In this document: positions 1,742 to 24,681 of the stretch, one piece after another
Position numbering within the stretch: position 1 is the stretch's first letter
Layout: each line of letters starts with the position of its first letter
NCBI GenBank assembly: GCA_017559385.1
Contig: JAFYSK010000051.1
Location: 25,778 to 89,777 of the forward strand
Origin: Paludibacteraceae bacterium
Lineage (GTDB): Bacteria; Bacteroidota; Bacteroidia; Bacteroidales; Paludibacteraceae
DNA: 64,000 nt
Direction of reading: 5' to 3'
The notes under the pieces: generated by a model
The model's input: only the letters and a program-made list of their open reading frames with translations
What the model was told of the DNA's origin: nothing
Database searches by the model: none
Position numbers and translations under genes: made by a program

Positions 1742-1780
1742 TGTGTTTGTATAATTTAGTTTTTATTGATCGTTTCACTC

Positions 1781-1920
1781 TTAGATCACTGCGTTGTTAG
1801 ACCATTTCATTGTTAGATCGTTCGCTTTGCTCACTGTTAGATTTCTTAGTCTAACAGCCGCCTAGCGGCGGTCTAACAGCCGAAGCCGGTCTAACTTCTA
1901 ATAGCCCATAGGGCGGTCTC
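1781..1920. repeat. Word array: about 4 GTTAGA-type words followed by about 4 inverted TCTAAC-type words
   Basis: ttagatc, gttagacc, tgttagatc and ctgttagat are followed by gtctaacag, ggtctaacag, ggtctaac and ggtctc. The array fills the rseC-rnfB spacer. Confidence 0.8.
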
Positions 1921-1921
1921 T

Positions 1922-2452
1922 TTACGCTCGCTTGCGAGCCGTAAAAGAAAATTCCTTTTGCAACTTATCTTTAAACATACCTAGCACGAGGTAGTACACT
2001 GCCATGGCGCAGAGTGCCACTGTACCCAGCACAGCCTCTCTTTTTGCCTCATCGCCTAATAGCCCTGTCGCCTCATCGCCCATAGCCAATAGCCCATTTC
2101 CTACAAACATCACTGCCAGCATCACAAAGAATGGCAGTAGATATGCCAGCACCACAGCTTTCCATCCCATCTTCTGCTGCACCATCACTTCCACAGTATC
2201 GCCAAGCTTGTATTGTTCAACATTGTTCAAGGTTGTTGTTTCCTCAGAAGACAATTTTGAACCATCTTGAACGGCGCTTTGCGCCTTTGAACCACTTTGA
2301 ACTAATTGCACCGTCATCTCCTTCTCGGCGCTCTCTGCACTGGCGCACATCGCCTTGGCTTTGCACGCTGCGCACGCACTAGTTTGCACGATTCGCACAA
2401 GGGCGGTGCCGTCCTCATTCAATGCGATTATTATGCCGTCATGTTTGATCAT
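1922..2452 (-). CDS. rseC: RseC/MucC-family (SoxR-reducing system) membrane protein, usual partner of rnf operons
   Basis: MIKHDGIIIAL..VRIVQTSACAACKAKAMC cysteine motif with two C-terminal TM helices. I chose the ATG at 2450-2452 over the upstream ATG at 2506 because a -7 box lies at 2478-2485. Confidence 0.8.
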   Translation of the reverse strand: MIKHDGIIIALNEDGTALVRIVQTSACAACKAKAMCASAESAEKEMTVQLVQSGSKAQSAVQDGSKLSSEETTTLNNVEQYKLGDTVEVMVQQKMGWKAVVLAYLLPFFVMLAVMFVGNGLLAMGDEATGLLGDEAKREAVLGTVALCAMAVYYLVLGMFKDKLQKEFSFTARKRA

Positions 2453-15763: not shown

Positions 15764-16870
15764 TTATCTCAACTGCATGGTATAATATAGTCCAATAGTG
15801 TCGCCTGATTGTACCTTCTGTAGGTCTTGTAATATGCGTTCGGGGTGAACGGTGCCTGACTCCCAAAAGTCATTGGCTCCAGAGGCTAGCGTGCGGCGAC
15901 GGAAATTATAAACATGGCCTGTCTGAAAGGCTTTGAACCATGTGTGCTTTTGGTCAATAGATGACAATTCTGCCATACTATTTGCTTCGCATCCGACCCA
16001 CACATCAGCTTCGGCAAAGTCTTGCAAGGCTTGCTCTATAGTCAGCGGAATGGATGTTGTAGATGGATTGTCCTCGTACTGATATTGTGCGCCAGCATCG
16101 CGGAAGAGGTGGCCCATGAATGTTCCTCCCGTAGGTACATACCATGTTCCTCGCCACGACATTCCGGACATGATGCTCGCTTTGCGAGTGTTCAGTAGCC
16201 CTGCGGGCTGTTCAGAATGGTTCAATGCTTCGCGTTCAGAGTTGCCTTTTCGCCTCATCGCCTCATCGCCTTTCAACTGCTCATATGCGTCTCTGACACT
16301 CGCGTATATACTATCCGCCATTGACTGGCAGCCGAAGATAGCCCCGAAGAAGCGTATCCATTCTGCCCGCTTGAGTGGGGTGGTTTCTGTCCATTCATTG
16401 CAATAAAAGACAGGAATACCCAATGCCTCAATCTGTCCTGGCACCTGATCACCTTCGGCATAGGTGGAGATGATTACTGCATCGGGTTTGGCGAGCAGAA
16501 TAGCTTCCATATTAGGCTGAATGTCATCGCCAATGTCTATCATAGTCTTGCGTTGCTCATCGCTAAGGTTATAGATGCGATTGGGGCGACATACCCCAAT
16601 GACCTTGTCCATCAAACCTAGTTCGTGCATAAAACCCATATGCGTGGCAGAAGTGCATATGACGCGTTCTAAAGGGCGAGTCATTGCATATTGCGCCATC
16701 ACTTCCCCTTGTTGCCATGGCGAGTGAATCGTAATGTGCGTAGTATCGCCCGACTGAGCAATATCAAAGCCTGCGGTATCATCCGATGCGGGTGAACTAA
16801 CTATAGGTTGGCATGCCGTGCACACCAACCCAAGTAAGCACAATGCTATGTGAAATTGTATTTTGAGCAT
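15764..16870 (-). CDS. Periplasmic-binding-protein type 2 (BtuF / siderophore-type) ABC substrate-binding lipoprotein
   Basis: Lipobox LVCTAC and a Peripla_BP_2-like layout (..VICTSATHMGF..DAVIISTYAEGD..). It carries the in-frame repeat at 16190-16270. Confidence 0.8.
   Translation of the reverse strand: MLKIQFHIALCLLGLVCTACQPIVSSPASDDTAGFDIAQSGDTTHITIHSPWQQGEVMAQYAMTRPLERVICTSATHMGFMHELGLMDKVIGVCRPNRIYNLSDEQRKTMIDIGDDIQPNMEAILLAKPDAVIISTYAEGDQVPGQIEALGIPVFYCNEWTETTPLKRAEWIRFFGAIFGCQSMADSIYASVRDAYEQLKGDEAMRRKGNSEREALNHSEQPAGLLNTRKASIMSGMSWRGTWYVPTGGTFMGHLFRDAGAQYQYEDNPSTTSIPLTIEQALQDFAEADVWVGCEANSMAELSSIDQKHTWFKAFQTGHVYNFRRRTLASGANDFWESGTVHPERILQDLQKVQSGDTIGLYYTMQLR
16190..16244. repeat. 55-nt element, copy A (inside a CDS)
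   Basis: gttcagtagccctgcgggctgttcagaatggttcaatgcttcgcgttcagagttg. It differs at 4 positions from copy B. Confidence 0.9.
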
Positions 16871-16912: not shown

Positions 16913-18184
16913 TTAAATTACCTTCAATTCACTTCCTGGGAAATAGTGCGCTAAGATTTGCTCGTAGGTATAGCCCTTGTCTGCCATGACGGCTGCACCA
17001 ATTTGGCACAAACCTACACCGTGTCCCCAGCCTGCACCCGTGAGGATGAAGTCGCCATTCTCGTTGCGATCTACTACAAAGGCACTACTGTACAAGTGGC
17101 TCTTGCTCAACCATTTGCGAATTTCTAACTCCTTGCCAATCACCATCGTGCGCTTGCTACCTACAATCTGCATCTCGTACAAACGAGCAGAAGGACCGCG
17201 CTTGATAGGCACTAAGTCAATGATCTCGCCAAAGTCAATACCCGAACGCTCGCGGATAATCTCGCTCAGCTCCTCTTTGGTATATTGTACCGTCCAGCGG
17301 TAGAAATCCTTGGTCTCTTGGTCGTAGTTGTTGAGGACTTGGCTGAGGATGCGCTCGTCGGTGGTATTGCAATAAGCCGAAGGCGAGGTACGGATAAACG
17401 CCTGCGCATTCTCCTCAATAGTCAAATCGGGTAGGGGAGTGCCAATCTCGTCACGAACAGGCTCTAGGTAGTCATAGTGCTCGTTTGCCCATGCGTTTTC
17501 AAAGAGTTCGGTCGCACCACCACATGCCTTGTAGAAGCGTGCGTCGCACACCTTGCCGTCGTACATAAGCACTTGTCCACGGGTGGCATCGATAGCTTTT
17601 TGTACATTAGCAGCAGCCTCTGGGTGCTCATCACGACGGGTGATACCCTCGTAGCGTTGGCAGTGGTCGTCAGCGCATACATCAAAGCCCTCGTGCGCGT
17701 CACGCTCATACCAAACGATGTGCTCGCTTTCGCTCGCGTTCAGTAGCCCTTCGGGCTGTTCAGTGTGGTTCAGTGCTTCGCGTTCAGAGTTGTTCGATGT
17801 TGAACTATTTTGAACTACCGTTGAACAATGTTGAACCGCATTTTGCGGATGCAAAATGGGTTTGAGTACCCAGCTGCGGGAGATAACGGCGTGTGCTTTC
17901 AAGAGCTCCAACGATGAGGTAGCTGACATCTCGGAGGTGATAACCGAACTGAGGTAGTCTTCTACATCGAGGCGGTTGATGGCAGTCTGTGTGCCATCTG
18001 CATTGTCGCGTATTTCAAGTGTACCTTCAAACTCTTGGTCTTCCAAACGATCCCAGTGGAAACCAATACCAATGCGGACATTCTTCAATAGGAAGGTTGG
18101 ATGTTCTGGAGTAGAGTGAGGACCTGGTATAACGGCCTCAATCTTTGGGGCGGTCATTACGCCCACAGCAATTTGGTGTTTCAT
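16913..18184 (-). CDS. SpoIID/LytB domain-containing protein
   Basis: ...AHAVISRSW...FDVCADDHCQRYEG...GWGHGVGLCQIGAAVMA... core motifs. Confidence 0.88.
   Translation of the reverse strand: MKHQIAVGVMTAPKIEAVIPGPHSTPEHPTFLLKNVRIGIGFHWDRLEDQEFEGTLEIRDNADGTQTAINRLDVEDYLSSVITSEMSATSSLELLKAHAVISRSWVLKPILHPQNAVQHCSTVVQNSSTSNNSEREALNHTEQPEGLLNASESEHIVWYERDAHEGFDVCADDHCQRYEGITRRDEHPEAAANVQKAIDATRGQVLMYDGKVCDARFYKACGGATELFENAWANEHYDYLEPVRDEIGTPLPDLTIEENAQAFIRTSPSAYCNTTDERILSQVLNNYDQETKDFYRWTVQYTKEELSEIIRERSGIDFGEIIDLVPIKRGPSARLYEMQIVGSKRTMVIGKELEIRKWLSKSHLYSSAFVVDRNENGDFILTGAGWGHGVGLCQIGAAVMADKGYTYEQILAHYFPGSELKVI
17738..17792. repeat. 55-nt element, copy B (inside a CDS)
   Basis: gttcagtagcccttcgggctgttcagtgtggttcagtgcttcgcgttcagagttg. 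Confidence 0.9.
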
Positions 18185-23748: not shown

Positions 23749-24681
23749 CTAAACTATTTCATCTGCCACTTCGCGGATGATATCGCGGAGTTTGGATGGG
23801 GTGAGGCGGTCGAAGCTCTCGCGGTTGGCTACAATACCTATGCCGCCCATCTCTACTGTACCTGGAGAGAAAAGAATACGTTCATTCTCAGGCGCAAAGA
23901 AGCATTGAGGACGGGATTCGCGGCGGAAGAACACGATTGTGTTGAATCTAGGCGATGAGGCGATAAGGCTATTAGGCGAAGAGGCTGGCTCGTACCACGA
24001 GATGATATTCCAGCGAGGCTCCCATTCTTCGGTGCGGGAAGCACCTGCGGTGAGTGAGCCTGTTTGGCTGGCGTTCTCTGGAATACTTGCCATGGATAGC
24101 ACTTTTTCTAGTGCTGCCAAATGGGATTGTAAATCAGATTCTTGCACCAATACGGCATTGGCGTAATTGGTGTCAAAATGATCTTCTATCGGCATACTAT
24201 GTCTTGGAACTGCTTGGAAGTGCATATGATCTGGCGCACTAGCACCACACATAGGACCGTTATAGAAAATACTCATCTCGGGCATTGCCTGAGCCAAATG
24301 CAACATTGACTCCATGTGCGGAGCAAAAGTTTGACGCTCGTGGATAGCGGACGAGATGGTGAAATGGTGGTTAAAGATAGGGAAGGGGTTGACACGAATA
24401 AAATACGTTTGACCCGTAGGGGAGTCCCAAACGGTGGTGAGCTGTAGAGGCTCTAAACCATCAGGACAAAGGAAGCATGCGCGCTTTTGCAAGGCCTCTG
24501 GACTGACGTCTGCCATCACACTACGCACGCGAGCTGGGTTGAAAAAGAGCTTGGCAGGAAAACCGTCGATGGTCATATCTTTGACTTCGACCTGATCCAA
24601 AGCTCCGTAGTTAACGAAAGCTCTCCCGCGAAGCTCAAGTTCGCGGGAGAACATCTCGGATATTTGTGTATAGAGGTTCAT
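23749..24681 (-). CDS. GalT/HIT-like (HxHxQ) nucleotidyltransferase-fold protein, probably the DUF4922 family
   Basis: ...CFLCP...RVNPFPIF.HH....APDHMHFQAVP. The family name is recalled from memory, not searched. Confidence 0.7.
   Translation of the reverse strand: MNLYTQISEMFSRELELRGRAFVNYGALDQVEVKDMTIDGFPAKLFFNPARVRSVMADVSPEALQKRACFLCPDGLEPLQLTTVWDSPTGQTYFIRVNPFPIFNHHFTISSAIHERQTFAPHMESMLHLAQAMPEMSIFYNGPMCGASAPDHMHFQAVPRHSMPIEDHFDTNYANAVLVQESDLQSHLAALEKVLSMASIPENASQTGSLTAGASRTEEWEPRWNIISWYEPASSPNSLIASSPRFNTIVFFRRESRPQCFFAPENERILFSPGTVEMGGIGIVANRESFDRLTPSKLRDIIREVADEIV

Follow-up and report, generated by a model that had tools for sequence, protein, structure and literature searches.

How an otherwise ordinary RseC protein comes to carry two stretches spelled in short, repeated nucleotide words, and why the same words turn up in unrelated genes, is the question raised by the rseC gene of this Paludibacteraceae genome, which lies near the start of the 64,000-nucleotide (nt) stretch of contig JAFYSK010000051.1 analyzed here (the window). 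The assembly comprises 2.0 Mb in 70 contigs at 42.8% G+C, and the DNA closest to it is that of Paludibacteraceae metagenome-assembled genomes (MAGs) recovered from the gut of cattle, yak, buffalo, deer, and horse. Our answer, held with moderate confidence, is that the two stretches are repeat DNA of a non-coding type that sits in frame, as part of a load of word arrays and mini-hairpins found throughout a lineage of uncultured ruminant-gut Paludibacteraceae. The gene and its two stretches are as follows.

1922–2452, minus strand: rseC, an open reading frame (ORF) of the RseC/MucC family with a PF04246 match, 176 aa
2042–2095, minus strand: site 2, a GCC-anchored array of 7/8-nt words encoding GLLAMGDEATGLLGDEAK
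2204–2308, minus strand: site 1, a GTTCAA/TTGAAC word mosaic with a mini-hairpin, encoding QLVQSG...NNVEQYKL

Outside these stretches, RseC conforms to its family. The protein scores 81.8 bits against PF04246 (E = 5e-23; gathering cut-off 24.4), with residues 13–172 falling on profile positions 5–126. The N-terminal Cys cluster (C27, C30, and C36) is invariant in alignment A5, which sets the RseC of the window beside twelve distant relatives of 137–145 residues, and the two C-terminal membrane helices are represented by hydrophobic segments read off the sequence at residues 97–119 and 139–160. These distant relatives, from a search of 1.84 billion representative proteins, match residues 1–51 and about 79–174 of the query; residues 52–78 are unmatched, and about 13 additional residues lie between the two membrane helices. 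The total excess is about 40 residues and falls at exactly the two places flagged in an earlier note on the window, which had put it at 35–45 residues over a family of roughly 140. Among close relatives, P0085 (locus L001) is without the site-2 array and has a family-typical turn, GNAIWAVREEILG, in that position, while P0111 has just ten residues at site 1. Set against the RseC family by alignment, the two stretches are both insertions. A distant homologue, P0384, bears an unrelated Gly/Ser-rich insert at site 1, so the site-1 loop, judged on the same kind of comparison, is permissive in the family at large.

The two insertions differ in their anatomy. At site 2, window positions 2046–2095 read GCCTCATCGCCTAATAGCCCTGTCGCCTCATCGCCCATAGCCAATAGCCC, and the minus strand encodes GLLAMGDEATGLLGDEAK; parsed on the plus strand, this is GCCTCATC GCCTAATA GCCCTGTC GCCTCATC GCCCATA GCCAATA GCC, a run of 7- or 8-base words that takes the place of a five-residue turn (AIWAV) between membrane helix 1 and helix 2, for a net gain of 13 aa. 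Site 1 follows the Cys-rich N-terminal part of RseC and precedes its invariant Gly-Asp...Val strand, and has 35 aa where the family has about 8–10, some 27 residues extra. Positions 2211–2305 hold two GTTCAA and four TTGAAC words together with a hairpin, GGCGC-AAA-GCGCC, and encode QLVQSGSKAQSAVQDGSKLSSEETTTLNNVEQ. Read on the coding strand, four GTTCAA words are spaced about 11 nt apart, with the hairpin between two of them, followed by a short center and then two inverted TTGAAC words; the computed RNA fold of this site has -25.8 kcal/mol (z = -1.5). The arrays are blends of five to six words, in which no more than 2.5 perfect copies stand in succession; near-perfect repetition of a single unit was not found in either.

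The words of site 2 recur in two further genes of the window, each with an array of its own.

16175–16270, minus strand: insertion in a periplasmic binding-protein gene (15764–16870), encoding KGDEAMRRKGNSEREALNHSEQPAGLLNTRKA, +22 aa net
23951–23985, minus strand: GCC-word array, in sense orientation, in a DUF4922 gene (23749–24681), encoding ASSPNSLIASSP

Re-reading the window reproduced every word, coordinate, and peptide that the earlier note had given for rseC, as well as the recurrences on which it had remarked. The word CGCCTCATCGCC occurs at 2069, 16251, 16259, and 23951 (minus strand), with a one-mismatch copy at 2045, which makes five occurrences against 0.09 expected from window shuffles, and TCGCCTAATAGCC occurs at 2052 and 23967 (minus strand), two matches against 0.02 expected. 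The three hosts are indeed unrelated, matching RseC_MucC (PF04246), Peripla_BP_2 (PF01497), and DUF4922 (PF16269), and the word is used in several frames and both orientations, antisense as GDEA.. in rseC and the binding protein and in sense as ASSPNSLIASSP in DUF4922. That three unrelated proteins carry the word was right, but the scale was understated, as the number of genes genome-wide is at least 45. In the whole genome, CGCCTCATCGCC ranks among the commonest 12-mers, with 46 copies where 0.24 would be expected; the words are common not through base composition but as a repeat family, at about 200 times the expected number.

The binding-protein insert consists of GGCGATGA GGCGATGA GGCGAAAA words (16244–16270) and a mosaic of GTTCAG words and hairpins. 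It is missing in a 95%-identical homologue (P0122) and in most of the family, and by alignment this array, too, is an insertion. The majority allele of the binding protein, KVDSLKFKGK, is itself four heptamers, GTTGAAA GTTGATA GTTTAAA GTTTAAA (L126 880–925, a 95%-identical strain); therefore, this seemingly empty site was already an array before the insert of the window arose. Further alleles consist purely of GGCGAxGA words, and one (L128) joins two word types. The 55-nt GTTCAG-word/hairpin module of the insert recurs in the neighboring SpoIID-like gene with 51/55 identity (17738–17792; C61:43515-43569). The DUF4922 array, by comparison, is invariant in every homologue of at least 92% identity, and in a 78%-identical yak-gut MAG (L025) it has the same place and length, with two words differing. 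The rseC and DUF4922 arrays match at 32/35, for which a copied block was considered and rejected, the match reflecting common vocabulary. For the DUF4922 protein, no relative was found in the PDB and no NCBIfam model matched.

Arrays of this kind pervade the genome. Tandem Repeats Finder reports 1758 arrays at a score of at least 30, against 317 in a Markov-3 control genome, and 558 against 7 at a score of at least 50. At a score of at least 40, the 734 non-redundant arrays divide into 397 between genes, 237 within called genes, and 100 straddling gene ends, with 2.0 arrays per kb of intergenic DNA and 0.13 per kb of genic DNA. Units are mostly 7–11 nt and are drawn from a small genome-wide vocabulary. 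The period is not divisible by three in 122 of the 237 genic arrays, and 61 have periods of 7 or 8 nt. GCC-anchored 7/8-nt arrays number 62, against 0–7 for most control trinucleotides; 45 are inside genes (27 antisense and 18 sense) and 16 are intergenic. Their antisense peptides include GDEAMRR, GEEARGEEA, and GLLGDEA, and their sense peptides ASSPNSLIA and SPIANS. By Pfam match, array hosts include type II dehydroquinase (AroQ), IspH, TrmO, a MiaB-like radical-SAM enzyme, RecQ, NAD synthetase, an ABC-F ATPase, and a homoserine-acetyltransferase-like hydrolase. Many independent assemblies, from ENA, JGI, and NCBI, contain the same arrays.

Five words dominate the 62 GCC arrays, namely GCCTCATC (41 tokens), GCCTTATC (26), GCCTTTC (15), GCCTCTC (14), and GCCAATA (13). 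Word order is a different matter: three-word orders shared between loci number 2, against 1.2 ± 1.2 in shuffles of the tokenized arrays, and copy-paste of a common block was rejected on this count. Mosaics resembling site 1, of the form GTTCAR/YTGAAC, form 30 clusters here, of which 11 are genic, and none in the Markov-3 control; they have a conserved right arm of about 50 nt, TGAACGCGAAGCRYTGAAC..YTGAACAGCCCnnnGGGCTAYTGAAC. Site 1 shares their architecture and has no match longer than 22 nt anywhere else in the genome. A replication-strand bias was not apparent, the C-rich word strand being leading in 23 cases and lagging in 23 under a noisy, skew-based strand assignment, and Rfam returned no match at gathering score in the window.

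Some side observations concern related repeats. Among the intergenic tandem arrays, 120 repeat with a period of 11 nt, roughly one helical turn, and use a wide range of words (AAGTCCCTATG, AACCCGTCATG, AAAGGTAGCGC, and others); genes have hardly any of this kind. The octamer (CGCCTCAT)n forms long intergenic arrays of up to 20 units on dozens of contigs in an uncultured Oscillochloris MAG of the Chloroflexota (L021 7240–7490, L053 720–770), and shorter ones in MAGs of Thermoanaerobaculia, Deltaproteobacteria, and Chthonomonadales (L034, L052, L103); in Paludibacteraceae, octamer runs reach at most 3–4 units and are mixed with other words.

Hairpins are the second component of the load. Direct repeats of at least 6 nt flank 129 GC mini-hairpins in this genome and 9 in the control. 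Within arrays of RecQ and another gene are hairpin modules of 39 and 42 nt, whose presence varies between species and whose boundaries are sharp. A mini-element that comes and goes between species with these 39- and 42-nt boundaries has conserved ends, CACCCC...GGGGACCCCGC, around an inner stem of 7–8 bp that varies between copies and is always perfectly complementary; it has seven genome copies (ends CACCCC...CGGGGACCCCGC) against none in the control, three of them in genes, including one in RecQ. It is often bordered by GGCGA-type words, and Rfam gave nothing credible on two loci bearing the CACCCC...GGGGACCCC hairpin. Copies lie at the following positions.

C2:2118-2149, CACCCC mini-element
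C11:3080-3114, CACCCC mini-element
C19:6812-6846, CACCCC mini-element
C20:876-907, CACCCC mini-element
C35:24301-24334, CACCCC mini-element
C51:1135-1169, CACCCC mini-element
C63:34033-34066, CACCCC mini-element
L004 1525-1565 and L017, also with a CACCCC mini-element

Comparison between strains showed how widely array content varies. The 120 closest RseC homologues are 75–100% identical overall and nearly invariant outside sites 1 and 2. Site 1, however, has 57 distinct peptides of 10–48 residues among them, which fall into at least nine unrelated classes when assigned by eye. Site 2 has the 18-residue array in most homologues, is without it in 11, and has length variants of 10, 16, 17, and 28 residues; at the DNA level the array is absent in L001/P0085, 30 nt longer in L004, and 24 nt shorter in L005. 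Nine site-1 alleles were seen as DNA, and each is a separate word array or hairpin mosaic, such as GAACCAA x3 with TTGGCTC-type x3, a 14-mer x2, CCAATAGC x3, or GGCGATGA/GGCGAGAA words with a CACCCC...GGGGACCCC hairpin. Site-1 classes differ by word blocks of 18–21 nt, and length differences within a class correspond to whole groups of words (21 nt = 3x7, 24 nt = 3x8, 30 nt = 2x8 + 2x7). Copy number is thus polymorphic between close strains at both rseC sites, and the binding-protein alleles differ as well. Four metagenomic rseC alleles are broken or rearranged, with breakpoints at the two array sites (P0365, P0372, P0379, and P0362): P0372 has a frameshift at site 1, P0365 is a 94-residue form that has lost the whole segment from site 1 to site 2 and with it membrane helix 1, and P0362 has a foreign N-terminus fused at site 1. 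Such alleles may have arisen by genuine rearrangement between arrays or by errors of assembly.

Between species, the sites persist. When 22 array-bearing loci of other Paludibacteraceae were aligned to this genome (68–90% DNA identity), a sample biased by the choice of loci for their array in the other genome and classified by eye, the orthologous site held an array of the same word family at the same place in 9 of the 22, an array of another family at the same place in 6 (GAGAGTT, GTTAGAC with hairpins, a GTTCAA mosaic, or GATATCC), and was empty or vestigial in 7. Array sites remain filled from one species to another, with their words replaced over time.

Inside genes, the arrays bear the mark of their reading frame. 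Of the 61 genic 7/8-nt arrays, 55 have a stop-free strand, compared with 31 of the 52 intergenic ones (Fisher p = 3e-4). For 23 of the 61, reading on with the consensus unit would lead to a stop in the direction of the gene, and the real sequence switches to another word at precisely that point; the binding protein, for example, reads GGC GAT GAG GCG ATG AGG CGA and then AAA instead of TGA. All intact rseC alleles are in frame and stop-free, and intragenic arrays persist solely as stop-free, in-frame versions. In antisense array peptides, G/A/E/R/D/K account for 82% of residues and hydrophobic or aromatic ones for 14%, compared with 37% for the latter in the proteome, while sense peptides are rich in S, L, P, and A. 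Given that stop avoidance and an in-frame constraint make sense only if the arrays are translated, the intragenic arrays probably give rise to extra loops, likely floppy ones. Splicing or translational bypass of the arrays was rejected as unnecessary, with stop-creating words specifically avoided and the intact alleles in frame.

A mechanism for this load would have several parts. Arrays could lengthen and shorten through strand slippage or unequal recombination, and loops of 7–8 nt, which are too large for MutS, would escape a mismatch repair that is still encoded here; loss of mismatch repair was considered and rejected, mutS (39% identity, full length) and mutL both being present. Words might spread between loci through short-patch templated copying, by template switching or gene conversion at 8–20 nt of microhomology, after which selection would retain copies that keep the reading frame, contain no stop, and fall in tolerant loops. 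Modules with hairpins would act more like discrete inserted mini-elements that land preferentially in existing arrays.

Several points weigh against this account. Slippage alone cannot convert one word family into another at a site, as in GGCGATGA to GAGAGTT, nor can it explain 62 loci with the same few words in unshared order; therefore, the copying of words between loci is a step that we can only infer, and it is the weak step of the mechanism. Slippage and translation are likewise deduced from sequence. At site 2, 8 of 54 columns vary among seven alleles, compared with 62 of 228 in the coding DNA on either side (p = 0.08), and at third codon positions 5 of 18 against 42 of 76 (p = 0.06), so that, as a trend only, the array is no hot spot of point mutation and if anything more conserved than its flanks, which would fit word homogenization or DNA-level constraint better than neutral decay. 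The structural placement of the inserts relies on alignment and hydrophobicity, and an AlphaFold2 model of RseC built with 24 close homologues was too poor to use (predicted local distance difference test score, pLDDT, 47). Genes outside the window were called with our own crude caller, based on ORFs and codon usage.

A bolder form of the explanation, which we regard as possible but on balance doubtful, is that an unrecognized sequence-writing process, through template-switching repair or mini-element mobilization, overwrites fixed permissive sites with genome-wide words in Paludibacteraceae and related Bacteroidales. A serious rival, in our view unlikely as an account of the whole, is that transposase-type enzymes mobilize the hairpin modules as miniature elements, akin to Rickettsia palindromic elements (RPEs), miniature inverted-repeat transposable elements, or repetitive extragenic palindromic (REP) and REPIN sequences, with word arrays as wings, footprints, preferred landing sites, or by-products, and with site 1 as one such element. 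The palindromic architecture and conserved right arm of the GTTCAR/YTGAAC mosaics, the recurrence of the 55-nt binding-protein module in the neighboring gene, the excess of mini-hairpins flanked by direct repeats, the sharp edges of the 39- and 42-nt hairpins, and the seven copies with ends CACCCC...GGGGACCCCGC all speak for insertion of this kind. The GCC arrays, however, are without fixed ends, without a target duplication separable from their period, and without a common word order, and site 1 finds no long match elsewhere. A tblastn search with E. coli RayT gave no homologue at E < 0.01, a weak negative in an incomplete MAG and a distant family. The 20-mer was found in only 1 of 2.9 million viral contigs, and a phage origin was rejected.

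Independent local origin, in which each array slipped from a local seed and the common words converged because they are harmless in all frames, we consider improbable, even though flanks are often word-like. Conserved Gly-Asp codons, GGCGAT, border rseC site 1, GTTGAAAG and GGCAAGAG border the binding-protein site, allele L128 mixes two word types, array peptides are hydrophilic, and the same octamer arrays occur in unrelated phyla, as in the 20 units of the Oscillochloris MAG. Yet in a random control about half of the 8-mers have a strand without stops, while a single word accounts for 41 tokens and five words dominate, and the same words fill the 16 intergenic arrays, beyond the reach of translational selection. 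Very improbable is programmed variation, with the arrays as phase-variable or diversity-generating contingency loci that tune RseC and Rnf. The extreme allele diversity at site 1, the existence of a frameshifted and an internally deleted allele, and the frame shift that gain or loss of one 7–8-nt unit would cause are what such a scheme would predict, but tracts with so few perfect copies would make poor slippage switches, the at least 45 host genes are unrelated housekeeping genes in both orientations instead of surface or restriction-modification genes, and the variation is in length and whole words, unlike the adenine-specific substitutions of diversity-generating retroelements. Chance, base composition, or assembly artifact, for which the shortness of the words is the one argument, is hardly credible in the face of the shuffle and Markov controls and the recurrence of the same arrays in independent assemblies.

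Set beside known systems, the lineage-wide word-array load that we favor resembles several and coincides with none. Long simple-sequence repeats have units of 5–11 nt with heptamers the commonest, according to Mrazek et al. (2007, as summarized in PMC4692102), and the Xanthomonas GGGAATC and Nostoc GGGGAYT heptamer repeats are 89–93% intergenic; polymerase slippage has been proposed as their cause, and polymerase footprint size as the reason for the heptamer excess (PMC4692102). The arrays here are similar in their head-to-tail units of 7–8 nt, far above chance and within the 5–11-nt range, their number of hundreds per genome, their few word families, and their variation between close relatives, but the GCC-word family is 45/62 intragenic and probably translated, degenerate, and interleaved with GC mini-hairpins, unlike the Xanthomonas and Nostoc heptamers. 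RPEs are defined elements of about 150 bp, each encoding one conserved peptide, according to Ogata et al. (2000, as summarized in PMC10969869). The likeness lies in non-coding-type repeats that sit in frame within many unrelated housekeeping ORFs without disrupting them and encode fold-compatible peptides, and perhaps in the palindromic word layout of site 1; the difference lies in words of 6–8 nt without fixed length or ends, used in both orientations and several frames, with content that varies between strains. As to a defined consensus of the RPE type, site 1 has the architecture of the 30 GTTCAR mosaics but no match longer than 22 nt, and site 2 lacks such a consensus, its word order being unshared.

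Tandem repeats in Borgs are about half in ORFs, fast-evolving, genome-specific, and independent at many loci, and in ORFs every unit length is divisible by three (PMC9879509). Like them, the arrays here evolve fast and create new low-complexity or disordered protein segments, but units of 7/8 nt cycle through three frames, and only groups that sum to a multiple of three are tolerated. REP sequences, arranged in bacterial interspersed mosaic elements (BIMEs) or as REPINs with REP-associated tyrosine transposases (RAYTs), are short hairpins, rich in GC and flanked by conserved tags, that cluster in alternating orientation and abound between genes (PMC3116915). The hairpins here share all of these traits, being likewise very abundant between genes, but are only 11–15 nt long (32–35 nt for the CACCCC...GGGGACCCC type), with stems that vary and yet remain complementary, and many are intragenic. 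Tracts in RseC, AroQ, IspH, TrmO, RecQ, and other hosts are degenerate and thus unlike phase-variable contingency loci, and rseC varies in length and in whole words, unlike the targets of diversity-generating retroelements with their constant length. Cyanobacterial short tandemly repeated repetitive (STRR) heptamers and small dispersed repeats are reportedly tiny, dispersed, nested, and occasionally intragenic (Mazel et al. 1990; Elhai et al. 2008), and would in this resemble the arrays here. The present analysis contributes a series of alleles for two sites within a single small gene, the vocabulary shared without shared order, the stop-avoidance statistics, and the persistence of sites across species with replacement of word families.

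The surroundings of rseC hold further repeats. The gene is the first of an rseC-rnfB-rnfC operon, with rnfB and rnfC downstream according to the window ORFs and the gene table of L130, and two more features belong to it.

1742–1921, minus strand: rseC-rnfB spacer, 180 nt, with GTTAGAC/GTCTAAC words and GC mini-hairpins
1926–1939, minus strand: C-terminal mini-hairpin of rseC, GCTCGC-AA-GCGAGC, encoding the ARKRA tail of RseC

Other alleles of RseC end in KKKNN, RKRDGA, or RKK; therefore, the C-terminus is a third array-affected site of rseC. The spacer, 180 nt here against 11–19 nt in relatives, has an RNA that is computed to fold into a single long nested hairpin (-57.7 kcal/mol, z = -4.2). 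We also observed that the C-terminal tail of RnfB (...PVEKVSEVSGVSGVSEVSKVEGEEAKA; window about 818–900) seems to be encoded by a word array, with SETPETPETSET on the opposite strand.

If the lineage-wide load is as we describe, essential and housekeeping proteins of a whole gut lineage would bear fast-changing loops encoded by repeats, with units of 7–8 nt that are not multiples of three and that textbooks hold to be incompatible with coding DNA. Gene callers, orthology tools, and strain typing would see false divergence at array sites, De Bruijn assemblers may break or collapse there, and protein models would contain unexplained loops. The question posed is what spreads single words of 7–8 nt among dozens of loci without copying longer blocks. 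Were a sequence-writing process responsible, it would amount to satellite DNA adapted to translation, continuously making strain-specific disordered loops in dozens of housekeeping enzymes of these Paludibacteraceae. The arrays offer a natural experiment on the birth and tolerance of new disordered protein segments.

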